This document shows positions 2,524 to 43,770 of a stretch of DNA of 64,000 nt, piece after piece. Position numbers and translations under genes: made by a program. The notes below the pieces were generated by a model that searched no databases, was not told where the DNA came from, and saw nothing but the letters and a program-made list of their open reading frames with translations. Origin of the DNA: an uncultured Methanomassiliicoccales archaeon (GTDB lineage: Archaea; Thermoplasmatota; Thermoplasmata; RBG-16-68-12; JAJISG01); assembly GCA_964348155.1 (NCBI GenBank), contig CAYGBN010000002.1:3520-67519 (forward strand), in the 5' to 3' direction. Each line of letters begins with the position of its first letter. Position 1 is the stretch's first letter.

Positions 2524-2656
2524 TCTCGTAGACCTCGTCGCAGGCAGGACAGAAGAGTTCCCCCTCCATAATCTCGTCCTCCTCCACAGCGACGCGGAGC
2601 TCCAGGTCCCCCTTGCACACGGGGCAGCAGAGGATGTCCATGAGATCCCGCTTCAT
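2480..2656 (-). CDS. Trm112-like small zinc-ribbon protein (58 aa)
   Basis: Minus-strand translation MKRDLMDILCCPVCKGDLELRVAVEEDEIMEGELFCPACDEVYEITDGIPNLLPPDLR, with the Trm112 signature (CPxC…C…C…DGIPNLL). Not in the ORF track (below 60 aa). Converges on and overlaps the tsr3 3' end by about 44 nt. Confidence 0.6.
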   Translation of the reverse strand: MKRDLMDILCCPVCKGDLELRVAVEEDEIMEGELFCPACDEVYEITDGIPNLLPPDLR

Positions 2657-2739
2657 GCGGGAGGGGACACCCGGGGGCGTCGCATAAACCCTTCGCTGGG
2701 GTCCCAGAAGCGCTGGGAAAACCGATATATAGCCGGCCC

Positions 2740-5700
2740 ATGTCGTTAGCCGAGCCAGGTGGGGGCGTGACCGACGAGGAAACCTTCCAGAAACGTCTGA
2801 ACTTCGCCCTCGTTCTGGGGGGGATCTTCGCCCTGGCCCTCTTCATCCGGTCATTCTTCGTCTACGACCTGGCCCTGCGGGACTTCCTTCTGTCGGGGGG
2901 ATCGGACGCCTTCTACTACCGCTGGACCATCGACCACATCGTCACCACGGGGACCCACCTCCTCCGTGACGGGATGCTCAACTACCCCCTGGGCATGAAC
3001 AACCCGCGTCCGCCGGTGTACGGGTGGAGCGTCTCCATCGTTGGCATGATGCTGGGCTACCTGCAAGGCTCCCTGGAGCTGGGGATCGCCCAGAGCTTCC
3101 TCTTCTCCACGGCCGTGTGGGGAGCCCTGACGATCTTTCCAACCTACTTCCTGGGGCGCGACATCTTCGGGCGGCGTGCGGGCCTGGTGGGAGCTTTCTT
3201 CCTGGCGCTGATGCCGGCCCACATCCAGCGCTCCCCCCTGAGCAACGGCGACCACGACGCCCTGGTCCTCTTCTTCGTGGTGACGGCCTTCTACTTCTTC
3301 CTCCGGGCCCTCCGGGAGCTGAGACAGGAGGAGTGGGTCACTCGATGGACGAGCCCTCGCGCCGTCGTGCGGGGACTTCGCCAGCTCCTCCTGGGGAACC
3401 GAAGGACGATCCTCTTCTCCGTCATGGCGGGGACGGCCGTGGCCGCCGTGGCCCTGACCTGGCAGGGCTGGGCCTACGTCCCCGTGGTCATCATGGCCTA
3501 CTTCATCGTTCAGCTCCTCGTCCACCAGGTCCGGAACGAGGACCCCCTGGGCGTGCTGCTGGCCTTCACCGTCACCCTGGGAACCGGGGTGCTCCTGGCG
3601 GCCCCCTACTACGTGGCCACGGGCTTCGTTCGCACCTGGTTCGACATTCCCCTGATCCTGTTCGTCGCCTCCATCGGGCTGGGGTTGCTGTTCACCGTTT
3701 TCCATCGGCTCCCGTGGGTCCTGGTCATTCCCCCGGTGCTCCTGGGGTTCACCGGCGGCCTGGCCATCGCCTCGTTCTACAGTCCGGCCGTGGCCAACGC
3801 CCTAACCTCCGGCTTCGGCTACTTCGCCCCCAACAAGGTCTTCGAGACCATCGCAGAGGCGCAGCCGCCGGAGCTCAGCCAGGCCATCCTCTCCTTCGGC
3901 GCCGTCGCCTACTACCTGGCCATCTTCGGCATCGGCTGGATGGCCATCCAGTTCGTGCGGCGGCCGCGGGCGGACTACCTGTTCGCCCTGGCCTGGAGCG
4001 CGGCCGCCATCTTCATGGCCATGTCCGCCGTCCGCTTCATCTTCAACGCCTCCCCCGCCTTCGCCCTCACCTCCGCGTGGATCACGGTCCTCCTGGTGGA
4101 GCGGCTGGGATTCGAGCAGCTTCGCCGGACGGTCACCGCCTCCGGGGGTAGCCGGCTCACGGCCCTCCGAAAGGGGGTGAAGGCCCGCCACGTGGCGGGG
4201 GCGGCCTTCGTCGCCCTCCTCCTCGTCCTCCCCAACGTGTGGTACGGCGTGGACGCCGCCATCCCCTTCGAACGGAAGGCCGAGCTGGACCAGCAGGTGT
4301 ACAACGCGATTCCCGCCCCCCTCCAGCCGGGGGGCTACCAGGAGGGGAGCCTCTTCTACTTCGGGGCCTTCGGCTACAACCTTCCCATGAAGAACACCTA
4401 CTTCCCCCAGGCGTGGGAGTGGTTCCGAACCCAGGACGCGGAGGTCTTCCCCCTCACGGACCGTCCCGCCTTCCTGAGCTGGTGGGACTACGGCTTCGAG
4501 GCCATCGAGGAAGGGCGCCACCCCACGGTGGCCGACAACTTCCAGAACGGGTTCGAGTACGCGGGCCACTTCTTGCTGGCCCAGAGCGAGAACGAGGGAA
4601 TCGCTGTCCTGAACGTCCGTCTTCTCCACGGCGACCTGGTGGAGCATGGCGGCGCCCTCGGCAGCGACGTCCAGGCGATCCTGCTGGCCCACGGCCTGGA
4701 GCCGGACCTTGTCCGCGACGTCCTGGAGCGGCCCACGATCTACATCCCCATCATCAAGGCGGATCCCGACCGCTTCGGCCAGTGGGACGCCCAGATCTCC
4801 CGCCGAAACGCCCGCGTCATCTACCTGAAGGCCCTCCTCACGGAGACCCTGGACCTGGACCTCCAGGCGGCGCTCTACCGGCAGCTGCGCATGGCCACGG
4901 GCCACAGCGTGGACTACTTCGCGGTGGACTCCCGCCTGGTGCCCTTCTCCGGCTCGAACACCGGGATCTTCTACGCCCCCGTGAAGCTGACGGACCACCG
5001 CACGGCGGAGCTGGCGGGGCTCCGGAGCGTCCCGGTGGACTTCTACCGCCTCCTGGCGGAGACCACGGACGGGCGGACGTTCGAACTCCAGGACGTGCCC
5101 CCCGCCGCCCAGATTGCCAACGTCCGCATCGTATACACGGAGATGTTCTACAACAGCATGCTCTACCGCATCTTCTTCGGGCAGAAGGGGAGCGACGTGG
5201 GGCTGGAGGACGAGGGGCTCCCCGCCATCGCGCCCCCCCTGGACGGACAGACCCCGCTCCACGGTTACATGCTGAAGCACTTCCAGCTGGCGTACCGGAC
5301 GGCGTACTACAACCCCCACCCCCCGCAGGAGGTCCTCAACTTCACGGAGGAGTGGACGGCGGTGGGCCTGTTCGAGGCCCAGGACCTCCAGGAGCAGATC
5401 GCCGCGGGGGAGGCGGTGGGGACGGTGGACGTCTCCCCGTCCGTGGCCCTCCGACAGGGCATCGTCGTGCTGCGCTTCTACGACGGGGCGATCCTTCAGG
5501 GCCGCGTCACTGCGGAGGACGGGCGTCCCCTGGAGGGCGTCCGCATCACCGTCCTGGACGAGGAAGGGATCCCCCACGACACGGAGTTCACCGACGCCCA
5601 AGGGGACTACCAGGTGCTCATGCCCTCGGGCGAGGTTCGCGTGGTGGCTTCCACGGGAGACCTTATCGGGCAGTCCCGGACGGGCAGCACTCTCCTAGGG

Positions 5701-8700
5701 GATGTGACCCTTTTCGTCCGGAAGGACCAGGCGGCCCGCGTGCCGCAGGACCGGGACGGGGACGGCCGCCTGGACTACCAGGTCCGTCAGGATTTCACGG
5801 TCCCCGCCTCCACCCTCCGCGGGGTCGTCTTCGCGGACGGAAACCGGAACGCGGGGAGGGAGGGGGGGGAGGGGGGGCGGGGGGGCCTCGGGGGGGAGGT
5901 GCGGGATGGCGACGGGAACGTCGCGGGGGCGGGGATTACGGGGGCGGACGGAGTTTACGAGATCGCGGGACTCCTTCCCGGGGACTACAGCGTCGTCCTC
6001 CTGCGGGACGACAGCCAGCTGGAGGAGGAGGACGTAACCCTCATCTTGGGCCAGGCGACGACCCACGACCTGGACCTTCCGGCCGGGCACCTCTTGGGGA
6101 CCCTGCGCGATGAGTACGGGCTCCCCGCGGTCGGGGGCGTGGTCGACATCGTGGAGGACGCCACGGGGCGACGTTGGACCGTGCCGGTGGACGAGGAGGG
6201 GGCCTTCGACGCGGCGGGGCTTGTGGAGGGCAACTACACGATACAGGGCTTTCTGGGGGCGCGGGAGTCCCTTCCCGAGCGCGTGCGGATCCCACGAGGA
6301 CTGAACGCCTCCCGGGACCTGGTTGCGAAGCCCCTTGGTGCGGTCGAGGGCCGCATCTTCGTGGCCTTCCAGCCCGCCCCCCACGCGAGCGTGTGGCTGC
6401 AGCCCCGAAAAATCCCCACGCCCGTGGCTCTCCAAGCCGACGCCGAGGGCCGATTCCAGGCGTCCCTCCCCGTTGGAACCTACGACGCCTACGCCCTCCA
6501 CTACCGGGCTGCTGAGCCCCACAGCTTCCTGGGCGTCCTCACGGTGGCGGAGGGCGCCGTTCAGACCTGGGACATCTTCCTGCAGCCCGCGGTTCACGTG
6601 TCCGGCCGGGTGACCCTGGCGGACGCCGGGGAGCCCGGCGTGTCCGTCACCTTCGCCCAGGGTGAGGCCTCCCGCACGGCCACCACGGGCGACACGGGCG
6701 ACTACGCCCTCCACCTGCCCAAGGGGCTCTACCGGGTGTGGGCCCTGCACCCCGAGGGGCAGTACGTCGCCAGCCACAGCCTCGGCGGGACCGCCCGGCT
6801 GGACCTCCGCCTGGCGGAGGCCGACTCTGCGGAGGGGCGGGTCTTCTACGACCGCAACGGCAACGGCACCTGGGACCCCGGGGAGGGAGTGGAGGGAGTG
6901 CGCCTCCAGTTCGTGGAGGAGGGCGGAGTCGCCTTCCGTCTCGACGCCGGGGCGGAGGGGACGTACATGGTGTCCCTCCTCCCCGGGACGTCGTACACGC
7001 TGAAGGTGGAGGAGGCCGGCTTCCTTCCCCTCTCCCTGGGCCCCTTCACGTCCGTCACCTTCCTCCCCCAGACCAATCTGGAGCTTCGACCGGAGCCCGT
7101 GGACGTGGACGGCACCCTGGTCCCCCTGGACGCCCTGGACCTGGAGGGGACGCCCGTCGCCTTTGCCCCCCTGGGGGACGGGGCGGAGGCAGCGGAGGCG
7201 ACGGCGGACGCGAGCGGCGCCTTCGTCGTGGACCTGCTGCCGGGGCTGTACGCCGTGGAGGTAGACGCCCCCGAGGACGGGGACGAGGCCGTCCGGATCC
7301 AGCTCCCGGAAGTGCGGACCCTGCGCATTCCCGTGGGGAAGGGGAACACGACCCTGGCCGTCGAGGTCGTGAAGCGCGTGCAGCTCAACGGCAGCCTGGA
7401 GGTGGCCGGAGGTCCAATGCAGGGGGCCCTGCTCCTCCAGGGGCCCGAGGAGCTCGAGGTGAGCGTGGACGGGAACTACACCGTCCTCCTGCGACCGGGC
7501 AACTACACCCTGTTCGGCGGCGCCTTCGCCGGCGGGTTGCCGTATGTCCTGCTGGAGCGCCTCAGCGTCACCGCCCCGACCACGTTCAACGCCTCCCTCA
7601 CGCCCGCGGCCCAGGTGGACGGCCGCGTGACCGTGGAAGGGCAGGCCCCCCCCGCGGCCATGGATCTCACCTTCCTCCGGACGGACGGCGCGAGTCTGAC
7701 CCTGCGGACGGACGCTCAGGGCGGCTACGAGGCGATCCTGGCCCCGGGCAACTACACCGTCTCCCTCGCCTGGCAGGGAGTGGACGGCGTGGACGGGCCC
7801 CTCCGGTTCGTGCGCTACAGCCTGAGCCAGGAGGTCGCCTTAGAGGCGGAAGAGGTCCGGACCCTAGACCTTCCCGTGGTCCGCACGCTCGAAAACGCCA
7901 CCCTGGAGGGGCGCGTCCTCCTGGGCGGGATGCCGGCGTCCGCCCAGGTCACCTTCGAGGCCGCCAACGCCACGGCCATGGACGCGTCCCTGGTCACCGG
8001 CGGCACCTTCACAGTCGCCCTCGCCCCCGGCCGGTACAACGTCTACGTCTTCCGGGAGACGGGGAAGACGGTCAGCCTCTCGTCGCTTCTCGTCCAGCCG
8101 GGAACGAGCAACGAGGTGACGCTCCTCCTGGAGTCGGGCTACCGCGTGGCCGGCATCGTGTCCCTCCCCGACGGGAGCCGAACGACCACGACCCTCACCT
8201 TCGCCGCGGAGGCGAGCGTGAACGTCACCACGGACGCCGCGGGGGTCTACGAGGCCTATCTCCCGGCGGGGACGTACGCTCTAGCGGCCCGGGTCCAGCG
8301 CACGGAGCGCGGCGTTCCCGTGGAGTACAGCCTGGAGGAGGAGTTCGTCCTCGTCGCGAGCACGACCCGTAACCTGCAGCTGGCGCGGCGCGACGACCCC
8401 GCCGTCACCCTGGCGTGGGACGTCCAGCAGCGGGCGACGGTGTCCGCGGGGAGCGTCGTGGACTACACCCTAACCCTCCGGAACACAGGGAACGTGGACG
8501 ACCGCTACGGGATGACGGCCTCCGTCCCGGGTTGGACCTTCGACTTCAAGCCACGTAGGGTGACCCTACCCTTCGGCCAGGACAACGAGGCCGTCGTGGA
8601 GGTGCGCATCACCACGCCTCCCGACGCTCTGGTGGAGCATCCCTCCCTGGTGGTGGAGGCCGCCTCCCTCCTGGGGACGGGGTCGCGGGACCTCCTCTCG

Positions 8701-9228
8701 GTGGACGTGGACATCCTCCAGGTTCGGCGCATCGACCTCCGTTTGGCCGCCCAACCCCCCACCCTCTCTCCCGAAGCCCTGGAGCTCCCCGTGGAGCTGG
8801 TCAATCCCGGGAACGGCCCGGACGTCTACAACGTGATCCTCACGAACCCGCAGACCCTGGAGACCCAGGGTTGGCGAGCCGAGCTCCAGGTGGACGCCGA
8901 GGGGAGGGGGACCGCCGCGGAGGGACTGGCGGTCGCGGCCAGCGAGACGCGTGTCGTCACCCTCCGGCTGGAGGTCGTGGGGGCCGTGGGGCCCACCCGG
9001 GCCCTCCTGCGGGCCTTCTCCCAGGACGACTCCAGGGTGGAGACGTTGCTGGAGGTCCCCGTGGTCTTCCCGTCCCTCTCCATCCCCGTGGAGGACGTGG
9101 TCCTGGACGGCCCCAACGTCCGTTTGGGGGCCCCTTCCTTCCCCGTGTTCCTCTACGGGTCCCTGGCCGCCGCGGCCGCCCTCGTGGCCATCCTCCTCCT
9201 CACACGCCGCCGGAGGTCGCGTCGATGA
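2740..9228 (+). CDS. aglB: AglB/STT3 oligosaccharyltransferase (N-terminal ~900 aa) fused to a ~1250-aa C-terminal array of carboxypeptidase-regulatory-like/CARDB beta-sandwich repeats, with a C-terminal TM anchor
   Basis: Multi-TM N-terminus and the WWDYG catalytic motif (FLSWWDYGFEAIEEGRHPTVADNF). About 10 repeats of the G.Y…L.PG.Y.V type follow (GDYQVLMPSGEVRV, GVYEIAGLLPGDYSVVLL, GDYALHLPKGLYRVWAL, and others). There are two CARDB-like segments (RNTGNVDDRYGM…, VNPGNGPDVYNV…). The C-terminus is …VAILLLTRRRRSRR. Confidence 0.85.
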   Translation: MSLAEPGGGVTDEETFQKRLNFALVLGGIFALALFIRSFFVYDLALRDFLLSGGSDAFYYRWTIDHIVTTGTHLLRDGMLNYPLGMNNPRPPVYGWSVSIVGMMLGYLQGSLELGIAQSFLFSTAVWGALTIFPTYFLGRDIFGRRAGLVGAFFLALMPAHIQRSPLSNGDHDALVLFFVVTAFYFFLRALRELRQEEWVTRWTSPRAVVRGLRQLLLGNRRTILFSVMAGTAVAAVALTWQGWAYVPVVIMAYFIVQLLVHQVRNEDPLGVLLAFTVTLGTGVLLAAPYYVATGFVRTWFDIPLILFVASIGLGLLFTVFHRLPWVLVIPPVLLGFTGGLAIASFYSPAVANALTSGFGYFAPNKVFETIAEAQPPELSQAILSFGAVAYYLAIFGIGWMAIQFVRRPRADYLFALAWSAAAIFMAMSAVRFIFNASPAFALTSAWITVLLVERLGFEQLRRTVTASGGSRLTALRKGVKARHVAGAAFVALLLVLPNVWYGVDAAIPFERKAELDQQVYNAIPAPLQPGGYQEGSLFYFGAFGYNLPMKNTYFPQAWEWFRTQDAEVFPLTDRPAFLSWWDYGFEAIEEGRHPTVADNFQNGFEYAGHFLLAQSENEGIAVLNVRLLHGDLVEHGGALGSDVQAILLAHGLEPDLVRDVLERPTIYIPIIKADPDRFGQWDAQISRRNARVIYLKALLTETLDLDLQAALYRQLRMATGHSVDYFAVDSRLVPFSGSNTGIFYAPVKLTDHRTAELAGLRSVPVDFYRLLAETTDGRTFELQDVPPAAQIANVRIVYTEMFYNSMLYRIFFGQKGSDVGLEDEGLPAIAPPLDGQTPLHGYMLKHFQLAYRTAYYNPHPPQEVLNFTEEWTAVGLFEAQDLQEQIAAGEAVGTVDVSPSVALRQGIVVLRFYDGAILQGRVTAEDGRPLEGVRITVLDEEGIPHDTEFTDAQGDYQVLMPSGEVRVVASTGDLIGQSRTGSTLLGDVTLFVRKDQAARVPQDRDGDGRLDYQVRQDFTVPASTLRGVVFADGNRNAGREGGEGGRGGLGGEVRDGDGNVAGAGITGADGVYEIAGLLPGDYSVVLLRDDSQLEEEDVTLILGQATTHDLDLPAGHLLGTLRDEYGLPAVGGVVDIVEDATGRRWTVPVDEEGAFDAAGLVEGNYTIQGFLGARESLPERVRIPRGLNASRDLVAKPLGAVEGRIFVAFQPAPHASVWLQPRKIPTPVALQADAEGRFQASLPVGTYDAYALHYRAAEPHSFLGVLTVAEGAVQTWDIFLQPAVHVSGRVTLADAGEPGVSVTFAQGEASRTATTGDTGDYALHLPKGLYRVWALHPEGQYVASHSLGGTARLDLRLAEADSAEGRVFYDRNGNGTWDPGEGVEGVRLQFVEEGGVAFRLDAGAEGTYMVSLLPGTSYTLKVEEAGFLPLSLGPFTSVTFLPQTNLELRPEPVDVDGTLVPLDALDLEGTPVAFAPLGDGAEAAEATADASGAFVVDLLPGLYAVEVDAPEDGDEAVRIQLPEVRTLRIPVGKGNTTLAVEVVKRVQLNGSLEVAGGPMQGALLLQGPEELEVSVDGNYTVLLRPGNYTLFGGAFAGGLPYVLLERLSVTAPTTFNASLTPAAQVDGRVTVEGQAPPAAMDLTFLRTDGASLTLRTDAQGGYEAILAPGNYTVSLAWQGVDGVDGPLRFVRYSLSQEVALEAEEVRTLDLPVVRTLENATLEGRVLLGGMPASAQVTFEAANATAMDASLVTGGTFTVALAPGRYNVYVFRETGKTVSLSSLLVQPGTSNEVTLLLESGYRVAGIVSLPDGSRTTTTLTFAAEASVNVTTDAAGVYEAYLPAGTYALAARVQRTERGVPVEYSLEEEFVLVASTTRNLQLARRDDPAVTLAWDVQQRATVSAGSVVDYTLTLRNTGNVDDRYGMTASVPGWTFDFKPRRVTLPFGQDNEAVVEVRITTPPDALVEHPSLVVEAASLLGTGSRDLLSVDVDILQVRRIDLRLAAQPPTLSPEALELPVELVNPGNGPDVYNVILTNPQTLETQGWRAELQVDAEGRGTAAEGLAVAASETRVVTLRLEVVGAVGPTRALLRAFSQDDSRVETLLEVPVVFPSLSIPVEDVVLDGPNVRLGAPSFPVFLYGSLAAAAALVAILLLTRRRRSRR

Positions 9229-38092: not shown

Positions 38093-38428
38093 CTATGACA
38101 GCAGCTTCCGGAAGCGGAGGGTGTCCTCGAGGGACGCCTTCACCCTGAGCTTTCCCGTGGCCAGAGCCTTGAAGGGGGCGATCTCCCGGGCGATGACGCC
38201 CCGGAGAACCTCCTCGTCGGCGGTGATGGTCAGATCGGCGTCGCCCTGCGCCTGGCCCTCCTCCAAGTCCACGATCTGGCCCTCCTCCAGCCGCATGTTA
38301 TACGTGGCCCTGTCCGTCACCACCTGAATGCGCTTCACCATGCCCGCCAGCTCCTCTTGCATGCGAGGGTTCGTTCGGGCCCGCTCGTTGAAGCGCCGGA
38401 TGAGGTCCTCCAGAAGGTCGCGCACGCT
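38093..38428 (-). CDS. SCP2 (sterol carrier protein 2-like) domain protein
   Basis: …NPRMQEELAGMVKRIQVVTDRATYNMRLEEGQIVDLEEG…KALATGKLRVKASLEDTLRFRKL. SCP2 fold. Start assigned to an internal GTG. The rest of the track ORF is artefact overlapping rnhB. Confidence 0.6.
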   Translation of the reverse strand, partial: SVRDLLEDLIRRFNERARTNPRMQEELAGMVKRIQVVTDRATYNMRLEEGQIVDLEEGQAQGDADLTITADEEVLRGVIAREIAPFKALATGKLRVKASLEDTLRFRKLLS

Positions 38429-39071
38429 ACCACTCCGTGAGCTTTCGCAGCTTGGCCCGGGCCAGCAGGCGCTGGGAGGTTCTCCACGCCCGCCGGGCGT
38501 GGGGGGGCACGTCCCCTTGCTCCCGCACCCATGCCCGCAGGAAGGCCACGGTCTGGGGGTCGTGGGCGTAGCCGCTCCCCACGGGCTGCCCAAGCTCCGC
38601 ACCGATGCGCTCCATCTCCTCGTCCCGCCGAACCTTCGCCACGATGGAGGCGGCAGAGACCACCGGGTGCCGTTCGTCCGCCCCATGCTCCGACCGCAGC
38701 GGGAGGTCGTAGCCCACGCCCCGGAGGATCTGGCGTCGAAATCGGGCCTCGGAGGTGTCGCAGCAATCCACCACGACCTCGTCAGGGGCCAGGGCCCGAA
38801 TGACGTCCGCGAAGAGGGTCGCCTCCAAGAGGTTGAGGGAGGTCGCGTCCATCCCTCGGTCCAACTCCGCCGCGGAGACCACGCGAACCTGGCACTCCGC
38901 CACCGCCTGGACCTCCTGGGCCAGGCCTCGTCTTCGCTGGGGAGTCAACCGCTTGGAGTCCCGAACGCCCAGAGACCGCAGGGAGCCGGGGTCCGTGGTC
39001 AGGACTCCCGCCACGACCAAGGGCCCCAGGACGGGGCCGCGTCCCGCCTCGTCGACGCCCAGAACCCTCAG
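38427..39071 (-). CDS. rnhB: Ribonuclease HII
   Basis: …LRVLGVDEAGRGPVLGPLVVAGVL…DSKRLTP…VDCCDTSEARF…SAASIVAKVRRD. RNase HII catalytic residues are present. The N-terminus begins at an in-frame CTG (39069-39071) that overlaps the upstream gene's TGA (CTGA). No ATG/GTG/TTG is available. Confidence 0.8.
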   Translation of the reverse strand: MRVLGVDEAGRGPVLGPLVVAGVLTTDPGSLRSLGVRDSKRLTPQRRRGLAQEVQAVAECQVRVVSAAELDRGMDATSLNLLEATLFADVIRALAPDEVVVDCCDTSEARFRRQILRGVGYDLPLRSEHGADERHPVVSAASIVAKVRRDEEMERIGAELGQPVGSGYAHDPQTVAFLRAWVREQGDVPPHARRAWRTSQRLLARAKLRKLTEW

Positions 39072-40339
39072 GGGGCCACCTCCCGACGCAGGCCCTCCAC
39101 ATCCTCCCGCAGGGCCGCGACGTCGACTCCGGTGAGTGCGCCGTTCTCCACCACGATCCGCCCCTCCACGACGACGTCCCTCACCTGACCTCCCTCCGCC
39201 AGATACACCAGGTAGGATAAGACCTCCGACGGATCGCGGGGGGGCCGCCGGCCCCGGAGATCGAGGACGACCACATCGGCGACGGTGCCCGCCTGGAGGG
39301 ATCCCCCCTCCAACCCCAGGACCTTCGCCCCGCCCCGGGTGCAGAGGTCCAGCACGAGGGAAGCCGTGGCGGCCCCCGGGTCCCACCGCGCGGCCTTGTG
39401 CTGGCCTGCGCAACCCCGCATGTGCTGGAAGAGGTCCAGGGTGCCGACCTGGGCGGGGGAGGCCGTGCCCAGGGCGACGGAGACGCCCTCCGCCCGCACC
39501 TCCGGCAGGGCCAGGCTGCCTCCCGTTCCACCCATGGCGTCGGCCAGGGGGCAGTGGACGACCTGCGCCCCGGATCGGCCGAGGGCGCGAATCTCGTTCA
39601 AGGTGAGCCAGACGGCGTGAAGGGCCAGGAGACGGGGGGAAAGGAGGCCGCGGGCCTCCAGCCAGGCTCCGGGCCGGTCGCCCGTGGCACGCTGGAAGCG
39701 GTAGACCTCGCGGCGGGTGCGGGCCAGGGGCAGGCACCATCGCAGGCCCCGATCCTCCGCGAAGGCCGCCACCTCCTCCAAGAGGGCAGGGTCCTCCGGG
39801 TTCGCGACCCCCACCGAGGGTTCCACACGGTCCCACGCCTGTACGCGGGCAAGCCCCTTGGCGCACCCCTCCAGCTCTTCGGGGGAGGCCACCTCCCAGC
39901 AGGGGAAGCCTCGGCTCCCCACCTGCGTCACGGCGCGGGCCAGCTCCTCCGCCCCTGGGAAGAGGTCGAGAAAGGACGTCGTTCCCCCAAGGAGCATCTC
40001 CGCAGCGGCCGCGGCCGCGGCGAGCTCCACGTCCCGACGGGTGAGGTTCTCCCGCAGAAGGCGGCGGCGCTCGCGCAGGTCCTCCGGAGGAAGGTCGCGG
40101 GGCGGGCCCAGCAGGAGGTCGACGGCCCGCGTGTAGGCGTTGACGAGCCCCGGGAGCACGAGGCATCCCGCGGCGTCCAGGACGTGGTCCGCGCCCTGGT
40201 CCGCGCCCCGTTCGGGTCCGGCGACCTCCGCCACGCGCCCGCCCTCCACGTAGAGGTTGCCCTCCACCACCCGGCGGCCGTCGTCCTGGGTGACCAGAAG
40301 GCCCCCCTTCACCAGGAGGGACACGCCCGGAGCCATCCC
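39068..40339 (-). CDS. Amidohydrolase-family deaminase/chlorohydrolase (MtaD/SsnA/TrzA-like)
   Basis: MAPGVSLLVKGGLLVT…VLPGLVNAYTR (metal-binding)…HAVWL…HCPLADAM. Amidohydrolase_1 fold. Confidence 0.7.
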   Translation of the reverse strand, partial: GMAPGVSLLVKGGLLVTQDDGRRVVEGNLYVEGGRVAEVAGPERGADQGADHVLDAAGCLVLPGLVNAYTRAVDLLLGPPRDLPPEDLRERRRLLRENLTRRDVELAAAAAAAEMLLGGTTSFLDLFPGAEELARAVTQVGSRGFPCWEVASPEELEGCAKGLARVQAWDRVEPSVGVANPEDPALLEEVAAFAEDRGLRWCLPLARTRREVYRFQRATGDRPGAWLEARGLLSPRLLALHAVWLTLNEIRALGRSGAQVVHCPLADAMGGTGGSLALPEVRAEGVSVALGTASPAQVGTLDLFQHMRGCAGQHKAARWDPGAATASLVLDLCTRGGAKVLGLEGGSLQAGTVADVVVLDLRGRRPPRDPSEVLSYLVYLAEGGQVRDVVVEGRIVVENGALTGVDVAALREDVEGLRREVAP

Positions 40340-40393
40340 CGCCTCTCTATTTGAAGGCCGGGCCCGGGCAAGGTTTAACTCCGCCGGCCTTTG

Positions 40394-41327
40394 GGTGCGC
40401 GTGGACTTTCTCCGGGAGGTGCGCGCCCTCCTGCGGCAGGTCCCGCGGGGACGCGTGACGAGCTTCAAGGCCGTGGCCGAAGCGCTGGGAGATGTCCGGG
40501 CCGCGAAGGCGGTCCGACAGGTCCTCCGCGAGGCGCGTCCCGAGGGGTGGCACCGCGTCGTGCGGGCCGACGGCGGCCTCTCCTTCCCGGAGGCCCGCGC
40601 GCCCCTCCAGGAGGAGGGGGTGCCCGTGACCGACGGGCGGGTGGAGGGCTTCACGGCACGGAAGCTAGACGCCCTCGCCTCCACGCACCCCCTCCGGGCC
40701 CTCCGGGAGGAGCAGCGCAACCTGGCTCGTCGCGTCCGCCTGGAGGACGCCCCCGAGGAGGGGGGAACGGTGGCGGGGTTCGACGTCGCCTACGAGGGGG
40801 AGCGGGCCTACGCTGCGGCGGTTGTCGTGGCCCCGGACAGCCTGGAGGTGCTTCAGCAAGTCGCCCTCACCACCCCGGTCACCTTCCCCTACGTGCCCAC
40901 ATACCTGGCCCATCGCGAGTGGGGGCCCCTCGCCCGCTGCTACGAGCGCCTTGAGGATCCCCTGGCCCTCCTCCTGGTTGACGGCAACGGAATCCTCCAT
41001 CCGGCGCGCTTCGGCATCGCCTGTCTCGTGGGCGTCCGCACGGGACGTCCCACCGTGGGGGTGGCCAAGAGCCTCCTCCTGGGGGAGGTGGCAGGGGCTC
41101 CGGGGCCCGGGGAGGCGGCGGAGGTGCGGCACCAAGAGGACATCCTGGGCTACGCCTTTCGGCCGGCCGAGGGAAAGCCCATCTACATCTCCCCCGGCCA
41201 CCGCATTAGCCTGGCCACGGCTCTGGAGCGCGTCCGAGGGCTCTGTCGCCAGCGCATCCCGGAGCCCCTCCGCCTGGCCCACCGCGCCTGCAGCCAGCTG
41301 CGCCGCGAGGGGGCGCAGGGGTCTTAA
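40394..41327 (+). CDS. nfi: Alkyltransferase-like (MGMT DNA-binding domain with Trp in place of the active-site Cys) fused to endonuclease V
   Basis: N-terminus …VTSFKAVAEALGDVRAAKAVRQVLREARPEGWHRVVRADGGLSF is MGMT-fold, with WHRVV where Ogt has PCHRVV. C-terminus GFDVAYEGERAYAAAVV…PYVPTYLAHREWGP…LLVDGNGILHPARFGIACLVGV…PTVGVAKS is EndoV (catalytic D/E/D/H/K present). GTG start at about 40394-40400. Confidence 0.75.
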
Positions 41328-41350
41328 GGGCGCTGGCTCCATGGCCCTCC

Positions 41351-42283
41351 GTGCGCTTCCTGGTCTTTGGGGCCGGGGCCCTGGGGAGCCTCTTGGGCGG
41401 CCTCCTCTCCCGGAGGCACGAGGTGGTGCTCGTCGCCCGGGGGCCTCACGCAGAGGCCGTTCGTCGACGAGGGCTCCGCATCTCGGGGAAGACCGAAACG
41501 GTGGCCCGTCCGCGGGCCGTCTACACCGTGGAAGGAGAGGAGCCGCCGGACGTGGTCGTTCTGGCCGTCAAGGCCTACGACACCGCTGAGGCCGTGGAGG
41601 CGCTGCGCCCGTACTGGGACACCTCCGCCTTCCTCTCCCTCCAGAACGGGCTGGGGAACGAGGACCTCTTGGCGGAGAGGACGGAGCGGGTTCTGGGAGG
41701 CGTCACGAGCCAGGGCGTCACGTTCGTCAGGCCGGGGGAGATCTTCCACGCGGGGGTGGGGGCCACCGTCATCGGCCCGTACCGAGACGCCGCCGCGTCG
41801 GACGCCCCCGCCGTCGTCCAGGCGTTCCAGGAGAGCGACCTTCCCTGCCGCCTGGCAGAGGACATCCGGACGGAGCTGTGGCGCAAAGCCCTGGTGAACG
41901 CCTCCATCAACCCCCTCACGGCCCTCCTTCGGGTGCGCAACGGGGAGGTGGCCCGGAGCGAGGCCCTCCGGGGGATCGTGAAGGAGGTGGTGGACGAAGG
42001 CGTGCGGACGGCCGGCGCCCACGGCGTCCGCCTGGAGGTGGGGGAGGTGTTGGCGCAGGTGTGGAAGACCGCGAAGGCCACGGCGGAGAACCGCTCCAGC
42101 ATGCTCCAGGACTTGGAAGCAGGCCGGCGGACGGAGATCGCGGCCATCAACGGCGCGCTGGTGGAACGTGGAAGCCGCGTGGGCATCCCGTGCCCGGCCA
42201 ACGCGACCCTCATGCGCCTCGTCCAAGCCGCGGAAGCGGCGGGGCGGGAGGCCCTCCTACGGGCCCGCGAGGCTCCTCCCTGA
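41351..42283 (+). CDS. panE: 2-dehydropantoate 2-reductase (ketopantoate reductase, ApbA/PanE)
   Basis: MRFLVFGAGALGSLLGGLL (Rossmann)…C-terminal ApbA domain …TELWRKALVNASINPLTALL…. Confidence 0.8.
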   Translation: MRFLVFGAGALGSLLGGLLSRRHEVVLVARGPHAEAVRRRGLRISGKTETVARPRAVYTVEGEEPPDVVVLAVKAYDTAEAVEALRPYWDTSAFLSLQNGLGNEDLLAERTERVLGGVTSQGVTFVRPGEIFHAGVGATVIGPYRDAAASDAPAVVQAFQESDLPCRLAEDIRTELWRKALVNASINPLTALLRVRNGEVARSEALRGIVKEVVDEGVRTAGAHGVRLEVGEVLAQVWKTAKATAENRSSMLQDLEAGRRTEIAAINGALVERGSRVGIPCPANATLMRLVQAAEAAGREALLRAREAPP

Positions 42284-42285
42284 CA

Positions 42286-42342
42286 AAGCATTTATAAGCG
42301 CCCTTTAAATACTGGTGAACCAGCGGGAAGCTCTTTTTCCGC
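42286..42342 (+). promoter_or_regulatory. tbp promoter: two TATA-like boxes (TTTATAA, CTTTAAATA) 30-55 nt upstream of the GTG start
   Basis: caaagcatttataagcgccctttaaatactggtgaaccagcggg… directly upstream of 42343. Confidence 0.5.
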
Positions 42343-42906
42343 GTGGGAGGAAGTGCGTTGGCAAAGATTAAAATCGAAAACGTCGTGGCATCGACCTCCT
42401 TGGGGGGGGAGCTGGACCTCCAGGCCATCGCCCTGGCCCTGGGCGGGGCGGAGTACGAGCCGGAGCAGTTCCCCGGTCTCATCTACCGATTGAAGGAGCC
42501 CAAGACGGCGACCCTCCTCTTCCGCAGCGGCAAGGTCGTGTGTACCGGCGCCAAGAGCCTGGAAGACGTCCGGACGGCGATCCGGACGGTGGCGGGCCAG
42601 ATTGAGGCCGCCGGCATCGACATCGACAAGGACCCCGAGATCGAGGTTCAGAACATCGTGGCCTCGTCGGACCTGGGGCAGGAGATCAACCTCAACGCCA
42701 TCGCCATCAGCCTGGGGCTGGAGCGGGTGGAGTACGAGCCGGAGCAATTTCCCGGCCTCGTGTATCGTCTGGACGACCCGAAGGTCGTGGTCCTCCTGTT
42801 CGGCAGCGGGAAGCTGGTCTGCACCGGCGCCCGGAAGCCGAACGACGTGGAGCGCGCCGTGGAGCGCATCACGGAGGAGCTCCAGGCGGCAGGCCTTCTG
42901 CGTTAG
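42343..42906 (+). CDS. tbp: TATA-box binding protein
   Basis: Two direct repeats: …IENVVASTSLGGELDLQAIA…QFPGLIYRL… and …VQNIVASSDLGQEINLNAIA…QFPGLVYRL…. Full-length TBP. Confidence 0.95.
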   Translation: MGGSALAKIKIENVVASTSLGGELDLQAIALALGGAEYEPEQFPGLIYRLKEPKTATLLFRSGKVVCTGAKSLEDVRTAIRTVAGQIEAAGIDIDKDPEIEVQNIVASSDLGQEINLNAIAISLGLERVEYEPEQFPGLVYRLDDPKVVVLLFGSGKLVCTGARKPNDVERAVERITEELQAAGLLR

Positions 42907-42921
42907 GCCCCTTGAGGACGC

Positions 42922-43770
42922 GTGGCGACGTCAGGGGACCTCCTCCAGGGCATCCCCGTCACGGACGATCACGTCCACTTCCGACCCGGAGGGCGGATGG
43001 AGGCTGCCCTGCGGGGCTTCCGCCGTCATGGGGGCCGTCGCATCCTCTTGGTCCACGCGCCTTACGAGGAGTGGCCCGTCGTCCGCGTGGACTTCGAGAA
43101 GGCCTACGGGGTGACGCTGGGCCTAGCGCGGAGCGCGCGCCACCTGGGCGTGGAGGTCCAGGTGGCCCTCGGCCCCCACCCCGTGGAGCTTCTGGCCCTG
43201 GAAAAGGCCCGAGGACTTCCCGCGGCCGTGGAGGCGATGAGATCCGGGATGGAGGCTGCCGTCGCCCACGTGGAGGAGGGGGAGGCCGTGGCCTTGGGGG
43301 AGATCGGCCGTCCCCACTTCCCGGTGGGCGAGGTCCAGTGGGAGGCCTCCAACGACCTCATGGCCTACGGGATGGAGCTCGCTCGGCAGGTCGGGTGTCC
43401 CGTGATCCTCCACACCGAGGAGGCCACGCCGGAGGTGTACCAGGACCTGGCGGCCCGGGCGGCGAAGGTCGGGCTGCCCCCGGAGCGGGTGGTGAAGCAC
43501 CACGCCGGCCCCCAGGTGCGTCCCGAGGAGACCCATGGCCTCTTCCCCTCCGTGGTGGCCAAGCGGCGCCACCTCGAGGAGGCGGCCAGCAAGGGGCTCC
43601 GCTTCCTCATGGAGACGGACTACCTCGACGACCCCCAGCGTCCGGGGGCCGTCCTGGGACTCAACACCGTGCCGCGGCGATGCGCGCGCCTGCTGCAGGA
43701 CGGCGTCCTCACCCGCGAGGGGCTCTTTCGCATCCACGAAGAGAACGTCCGTCGCGTCTACGGGGTGTAG
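42922..43770 (+). CDS. TIM-barrel metal-dependent hydrolase, TatD-related (COG1099-like)
   Basis: …PVTDDHVHFRPGG…LGEIGRPHFPV…PVILHTEEA… Metal-binding His/Glu pattern of TatD-like hydrolases. Confidence 0.55.
   Translation: MATSGDLLQGIPVTDDHVHFRPGGRMEAALRGFRRHGGRRILLVHAPYEEWPVVRVDFEKAYGVTLGLARSARHLGVEVQVALGPHPVELLALEKARGLPAAVEAMRSGMEAAVAHVEEGEAVALGEIGRPHFPVGEVQWEASNDLMAYGMELARQVGCPVILHTEEATPEVYQDLAARAAKVGLPPERVVKHHAGPQVRPEETHGLFPSVVAKRRHLEEAASKGLRFLMETDYLDDPQRPGAVLGLNTVPRRCARLLQDGVLTREGLFRIHEENVRRVYGV

Follow-up and report, generated by a model that had tools for sequence, protein, structure and literature searches.

The gene at 40395–41327 on the plus strand of the DNA analysed here, a stretch of 64,000 nucleotides referred to as the window, encodes a fusion protein. 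Its N-terminal domain belongs to the alkyltransferase (AGT) family and carries Trp in place of the alkyl-acceptor Cys, and its C-terminal domain is an endonuclease V (EndoV) with an apparently competent active site. We consider it probable that the protein is an active EndoV with a catalytically dead AGT-fold domain, which arose in place from an AGT-EndoV ancestor and has been kept as a DNA-binding or sensing accessory. In this study, we observed the identity of the two domains, the substitutions in the N-domain, the intact catalytic residues of EndoV, conservation throughout the clade, orthology based on synteny, and purifying selection.

In the ORF list of the window, a single open frame spans 40257–41327 (plus strand). 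In the database, the gene is called from GTG 40395 to the stop codon TAA at 41325–41327, giving a 310-aa protein that exactly matches the database protein P0001. An earlier reading of the same DNA, made from the sequence alone (the sequence-only reading), had delimited the feature as 40394–41327; the end was correct, but the start lies one base off the codon boundary. An alternative start at GTG 40401 (plus strand) gives a protein of 308 aa beginning with MDFLREV, which fits the N-termini of the homologues (MDF/MRF) better. The upstream amidohydrolase gene on the minus strand starts at about 40336, leaving an intergenic gap of only about 60 nt. Within this gap, TTTAAC at 40374–40379 (plus strand), read from the sequence, may be an archaeal element resembling a TATA box. 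It lies 27 nt upstream of GTG 40401, and this placement could imply a leaderless mRNA and a true start at 40401 (308 aa) rather than at 40395. A scan for sigma-70 promoters and intrinsic terminators, which is not applicable to archaea, found nothing. In the numbering of the 310-aa protein, the N-terminal AGT/ATL-fold domain (ATL, alkyltransferase-like) extends from aa 4 to about aa 90 (40404–40664, plus strand) and contains the helix-turn-helix, GWHRVV, and the family signature ALGD. A linker with the family-conserved motif PL..LR.EQ (40665–40718, plus strand; helix at aa 99–111) leads into the EndoV domain at aa 109–297 (40719–41285, plus strand).

As for the window as a whole (1–64000), its G+C content of 68.5% results in long spurious ORFs in every frame; for example, those at 39068–40720 and 38427–40166 on the minus strand overlap real genes. 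ARAGORN found no tRNA gene across the whole 64 kb. The ORF at 2644–9225 on the plus strand (2193 aa) begins with an STT3/AglB-type oligosaccharyltransferase N-terminus, followed by many CarboxypepD_reg/transthyretin-like repeats.

The identity of both domains was confirmed by profile searches. Pfam assigned aa 4–69 to DNA_binding_1 (PF01035), the DNA-binding and active-site domain of MGMT/AGT, with an E-value of 2.1e-12, above the cut-off, and aa 109–297 to Endonuclease_5 (PF04493) with an E-value of 8.2e-55; an NCBIfam search agreed with both assignments. The N-domain has the fold of the AGT C-terminal domain with its helix-turn-helix, and this C-domain is the only part of AGT present, with the acceptor Cys replaced by Trp within xWHRV as in ATLs. 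The motif PEGWHRVV occupies aa 49–56 of the fusion protein, and Trp52 (TGG codon at 40548–40550, plus strand) takes the place of the Cys that accepts alkyl groups in PCHRV; the residue is Trp in 28/28 members of the clade to which the protein belongs. When the N-domain was aligned with solved structures using HMMER, W52 coincided with Trp56 of Schizosaccharomyces pombe Atl1, with the Trp of Vibrio parahaemolyticus ATL (vpAtl), and with the active-site Cys (PCHRVV) of the C-terminal domain of Escherichia coli Ada (Ada-C). The nucleophilic Cys of the (I/V)PCHR(V/I) motif is absent from the protein, where the context reads EGWHRVV. A displaced active-site Cys elsewhere in the N-domain was also considered and rejected, as the alignments to Atl1, vpAtl, and Ada were unambiguous. 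Thus, the claim of the sequence-only reading that an AGT-family domain with a Cys-to-Trp substitution is fused to EndoV was borne out by the Pfam domains and by these alignments, including the alignment check of the active-site substitution that it had proposed. Judging from these residues, the N-domain is presumably incapable of alkyl transfer. A profile search of all six frames found no second AGT-like domain in the 64-kb window, and a canonical AGT compensating for the loss within the window was rejected accordingly.

We then considered how this protein relates to other fusions. A search of 5.8 billion proteins gave 592 matches; in the best 120 of the 592, nearly all of the proteins contained both domains, and their sources were metagenome-assembled genomes (MAGs) of Thermoplasmata/Thermoplasmatota. 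Among the GTDB species-representative genomes, more than 593 fusion loci were found, mostly in Thermoplasmatota and in a few bacterial MAGs. The window protein has the features of this family, namely an N-terminal PF01035 domain, a C-terminal PF04493 domain, the ALGD signature, and the PL..LR.EQ linker; G32 and Q107 are invariant in the family, and conservation reaches at least 90% at A30, L31, D33, L100, L103, and R104. When the N-domains of the 120 homologues were aligned with human MGMT, Atl1, Ada-C, and vpAtl, they fell into three classes. The Cys class has Tyr, Arg, and Asn at the positions of human Tyr114, Arg128, and Asn137, respectively, together with Pro-Cys-(His/Tyr/Phe) and a full loop of the GxLGGF type; it thus holds every canonical AGT residue and represents the Ferroplasma AGTendoV type. 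The Ala/Gly class has Cys at the Tyr114 position and the motif G(A/G)HRVV, keeps Arg128, and has lost Asn137 and the active-site loop. The Trp class, to which the window protein belongs, has the motif GW(H/Y)R(V/A)V and has lost the Asn; its other residues are described below. In the Ala/Gly class, the Cys of PCHRV is gone and a nearly invariant Cys (motif vATCG) sits where the base-flipping Tyr would be, with the arginine finger kept; examples include the proteins P0039, P0041, P0046, and P0051 and the loci L012, L030, L039, L049, and L055.

The TGG codon itself was found to be reliable. Both a metagenome contig at NCBI (GCA_012974985.1) and a Logan assembly of ERR2564002 encode an identical 310-aa protein, and Trp occupies the acceptor column throughout the 28 closest aligned homologues, which share 52–73% identity and come from many samples. 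A single base change would be enough to turn TGC or TGT into TGG by a sequencing or assembly error, in which case the protein would be an ordinary AGT-EndoV. However, this error is excluded by the identical protein in the two assemblies and the Trp of all 28 homologues, and the changes at the Tyr, Arg, Asn, and Pro positions and in the loop co-vary with Trp. Hence, we see practically no chance that the codon is an artefact, the possibility that the sequence-only reading had named as a way in which it could fail.

The remaining lesion-binding residues of the N-domain are less ATL-like. The base-flipping apparatus, which consists of the helix-turn-helix with an arginine finger and a tyrosine, is conserved between AGTs and ATLs (PMC10779285). 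The window protein has Phe24 (TTC codon at 40464–40466, plus strand) where the base-flipping Tyr would stand (human Y114, Atl1 Y25); 27/28 members of the Trp clade have Phe there, whereas all of the standalone ATLs recovered have Tyr. Phe at this position has been described in some active AGTs (PMC10779285), and therefore a change from Tyr to Phe does not disqualify the domain by itself. In place of the arginine finger (human R128, Atl1 R39), the window protein has Lys38 (AAG codon at 40506–40508, plus strand). Across the Trp clade, the finger column is unconserved (K, V, R, P, M, I, and E; mostly Val or Lys), and approximately half of the clade has Val, Met, Pro, or Ile; the closest relative (P0002) has Arg, and the window protein keeps a basic residue. 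Neither the Asn hinge (human N137) nor the full active-site loop (human G156–G160) of AGTs is present: Ala aligns at the N137 column, and the loop between DG and L..EG is about 6–7 residues shorter than that of the Cys-class fusions, human MGMT, or Atl1. The shortened loop has no conserved Arg, whereas its counterpart in Atl1 carries the base-contacting R69. On the other hand, Trp52, His53, Arg54, Glu74, and the Pro two residues before Gly51-Trp52, which aligns with P50 of Atl1, are conserved. As a control, we used standalone PF01035 proteins of about 100 aa and a few fragments, collected with the profile of the Trp-clade N-domain; in this set, both Tyr and Arg were kept in 46/46 ATLs with PW[WH]R and in 63/63 PCH proteins.

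We therefore did not call the N-domain an ATL, because the conserved finger and part of the pocket have been lost; from its sequence, it is better described as a Cys-less, ATL-resembling pseudo-alkyltransferase domain. The sequence-only reading had taken GWHRVV as the hallmark of ATLs. Trp is indeed at the ATL position, but the equation with functional ATLs does not hold with Phe, Lys, no Asn hinge, and a short loop. Owing to these four features, binding of O6-alkylguanine by the domain should not be taken for granted; a reduced form of lesion binding is possible.

In contrast to the N-domain, the EndoV domain is intact in its catalytic residues. The PF04493 profile was covered over 2–198 of its 198 positions with a score of 186 bits against a cut-off of 23.4. 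The NCBIfam EndoV equivalogs, with their strict thresholds, were not reached (156 against 230), as would be anticipated for a fused form that has diverged. The RNase H-like EndoV fold is present, and a one-to-one match was obtained on alignment with the Thermotoga maritima structure 2w35, in which D130 (40782–40784), E175 (40917–40919), D196 (40980–40982), K225 (41067–41069), and H269 (41199–41201), all on the plus strand, correspond to D43, E89, D110, K139, and H214, respectively. The wedge motif PYVP at aa 165–168 (40887–40898, plus strand) aligns with PYIP of T. maritima. Across 112 homologues, these catalytic and metal-binding residues and the wedge are either invariant or show at least 90% conservation. 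An AlphaFold2 model of the fusion protein was very confident (pLDDT 96.6, pTM 0.91). The intact catalytic residues suggest that the domain is active, and they agree with the proposal of the sequence-only reading that the N-domain is joined to a seemingly incision-competent EndoV.

The origin of the Trp form was examined using the EndoV domain alone. In a neighbor-joining (NJ) tree of this domain, the Trp proteins were monophyletic (28/28) and lay together with the Ala/Gly proteins inside a Cys-less clade of 56 members, while 51 of the 56 members of the opposite clade had Cys. In the window, the gene order over 38093–43770 is SCP2, RNase HII, and amidohydrolase on the minus strand, followed by the fusion, ApbA/PanE (ketopantoate reductase), TBP, and a TatD-like hydrolase on the plus strand. 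Among the species-representative genomes, this order is kept in 5/5 of the Trp-type loci of the lineage and in most Ala/Gly-type loci, and is not conserved in Cys-type loci. The EndoV-only tree and the shared synteny therefore indicate that the Cys-less forms are vertically inherited orthologues in which the substitutions arose in place. In addition, HHalign comparison of the Trp-class N-domain gave the highest score with the fused Ala/Gly class (168), followed by standalone single-domain AGTs (159), the fused Cys class (149), and standalone ATLs (148); as the differences between these scores are small, they agree only weakly with an in-place origin. A bacterial ATL recently swapped into the fusion was also considered and is not supported: the EndoV-only tree is congruent with the state of the Cys position, the synteny is common to the Trp and Ala/Gly forms, and the HHalign score is highest for the fused Ala/Gly class, if by a small difference. 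Three enzymes acting on nucleic acids (RNase HII, EndoV, and TatD) are encoded within 6 kb at this locus.

The same fusion was found in a few bacterial MAGs, assigned to Planctomycetaceae, Fraserbacteria, Acetothermia, Bipolaricaulota, and an unclassified uncultured bacterium (L067). These loci (L065, L066, L067, L073, L074, and L076) mostly have Cys (PCYKVV, PCHRVV, or CCCHRVV), with one PVHRVV, and their occurrence suggests horizontal transfer or mis-binning. Another fusion, at 6001–6906 of locus L070 in a MAG labelled Nitrososphaerota, has GGPWHRFV, with Phe in the Tyr position and Lys in the Arg position. Because the synteny of the Trp clade is absent there, its change from Cys to Trp is apparently independent of that clade.

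The N-domain is not decaying but is under purifying selection. Mean pairwise identity within the Trp clade was 0.56 for the N-domain and 0.63 for EndoV, and 16 columns of the N-domain were invariant in 17 Trp-clade sequences. For six orthologues, dN/dS calculated by the Nei-Gojobori method was 0.12–0.55 for the N-domain and 0.14–0.34 for EndoV, although synonymous sites were saturated in most pairs (dS about 1–2) and only one pair, L004/L005, is really informative. In this least saturated pair, dN/dS was 0.12 for the N-domain and 0.19 for EndoV.

In the reading that we consider probable, the AGT-EndoV fusion, which is widespread in Thermoplasmatota, would be ancestral there. One vertically inherited lineage would have exchanged the acceptor Cys for Ala or Gly, and the acceptor position would have become an invariant Trp in the sub-clade including this organism. 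Alongside Trp, the Tyr would have changed to Phe, the arginine finger would have become dispensable, the Asn hinge would have disappeared, and the active-site loop would have been shortened. The present fusion is presumed to act as an EndoV, with the PYVP wedge recognising deaminated purines and the nick placed one nucleotide 3' of the lesion. The N-domain, which is packed confidently against EndoV in the model, may bind the minor groove non-specifically through its conserved helix-turn-helix (GD.RAA.xV) and may thereby contribute to the affinity, positioning, or stability of EndoV. Such an accessory DNA-binding role is the most likely one for the domain, which would not be a canonical flip-and-hold sensor of O6-alkylguanine.

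A true ATL-EndoV coupling, in which the Trp domain recognises O6-alkylguanine without transfer and its own EndoV nicks nearby to start an excision pathway, seems rather unlikely to us. This idea has already been voiced in a review (PMC10779285). Trp is placed exactly at the ATL position, the solved structure closest to the N-domain is vpAtl, and the His, the Arg, the Glu, and the Pro resembling P50 of Atl1 are conserved, all of which would be expected of such a coupling, as would the purifying selection on the N-domain; the confident, rigid two-domain model is also compatible with cooperation between the domains. However, every standalone ATL recovered keeps the Tyr and the Arg, whereas here the Tyr is replaced by Phe, roughly half of the Trp-clade members have Val, Met, Pro, or Ile at the finger and the window protein has Lys, the Asn hinge is lost, and the pocket loop bearing R69 in Atl1 is shortened without a conserved Arg. 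Furthermore, EndoV has no known incision activity at O6-alkylguanine. It is very doubtful, in our view, that the Trp domain is a genuine, streamlined sensor of O6-alkylguanine or another adduct detectable from the minor groove, positioning its own EndoV to nick beside a lesion that EndoV alone would ignore. If true, these archaea would have a one-protein route of 'alternative excision repair' for alkylation damage, and the series from Cys through Ala/Gly to Trp in one orthologous gene would record a suicide transferase becoming a nuclease-targeting module.

The N-domain might also be a structural relic, that is, a dead domain held off DNA and retained for the folding or stability of EndoV through constructive neutral evolution. 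The tight and confident packing of the two domains in the model (pTM 0.91) would suit such a relic, as would the loss of several features contacting DNA or the lesion while fold-determining residues stayed conserved, and EndoV motif IV has diverged throughout the family (ACxVG against ASHxG). We nevertheless regard it as quite unlikely, since conservation persists in the recognition-helix motif GD.RAA.xV and at many basic residues, and since in the closest pair the dN/dS of the N-domain is no higher than the EndoV value, which is more than a mere scaffold would lead one to expect, although still compatible with one.

The window protein is a clean and well-supported example of the Cys-less AGT/ATL-EndoV form. 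Together with its relatives, it shows that the acceptor Cys was lost within a lineage of orthologous genes with shared synteny, that the dead domain remains under selection, and that the Trp form has also given up the arginine finger and a portion of the lesion pocket. Practical consequences are modest. Annotation pipelines label the family inconsistently as endonuclease V, MGMT, or Atl1, the public labels being 'endonuclease V', 'MGMT family protein', 'methylated-DNA--protein-cysteine methyltransferase', and 'alkylated DNA nucleotide flippase Atl1'.

The combination of an ATL domain with EndoV had been taken by the sequence-only reading as not previously described. However, ATL-EndoV fusions in archaea are already mentioned in a 2023 review that cites Tubbs 2009 (Nature 459:808), and the same review relays the speculation, linking lesion recognition to incision, that EndoV could play an XPG-like incision role and that scanning might be accelerated by the additional contacts with DNA (PMC10779285). 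The archaeal ATL-EndoV of Tubbs 2009, compared here by its description in that review, represents the same concept as the window protein, a Cys-less domain with EndoV as the incision partner. Our literature search found no biochemical study of a Cys-less fusion.

Compared with the canonical EndoV proteins E. coli Nfi and T. maritima TM1865, the window protein has an extra N-terminal domain, HPAR instead of HPRR/K in motif III, and ACLVG instead of ASHxG in motif IV, the ACxVG change being common to the whole fusion family. The Cys-bearing form has been characterised as AGTendoV of Ferroplasma acidarmanus (Kanugula et al. 2005, PNAS 102:3617, as relayed in PMC10779285 and PMC3489907). This protein is also of the Thermoplasmatota lineage and has the same architecture as the window protein, an AGT C-terminal-type domain without the AGT N-domain followed by EndoV; it has a reactive Cys and performs alkyl transfer, whereas the window protein has Trp. 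The comparison was made through Cys-class homologues rather than the Ferroplasma sequence itself; these are homologous to the window protein over its whole length (36–44% identity) and have ALGD and PL..LR.EQ in common with it, but the window protein lacks their Asn hinge, the Pro before the Cys, the conserved arginine finger, and part of the loop. The window domain shares with the standalone ATLs (S. pombe Atl1, E. coli YbaZ/eAtl, vpAtl, and Thermus thermophilus TTHA1564) a single AGT C-domain fold, Trp (or Ala) for Cys within xWHRV, and the His, Arg, and Glu that once belonged to the catalytic network. In contrast, the standalone ATLs keep the Tyr, the arginine finger, and a full-length pocket loop, where the window domain has Phe, Lys, and a shortened loop, and the window domain has Gly instead of Pro before the Trp. 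Finally, whereas standalone ATLs recruit NER, the window domain is covalently fused to a nuclease.
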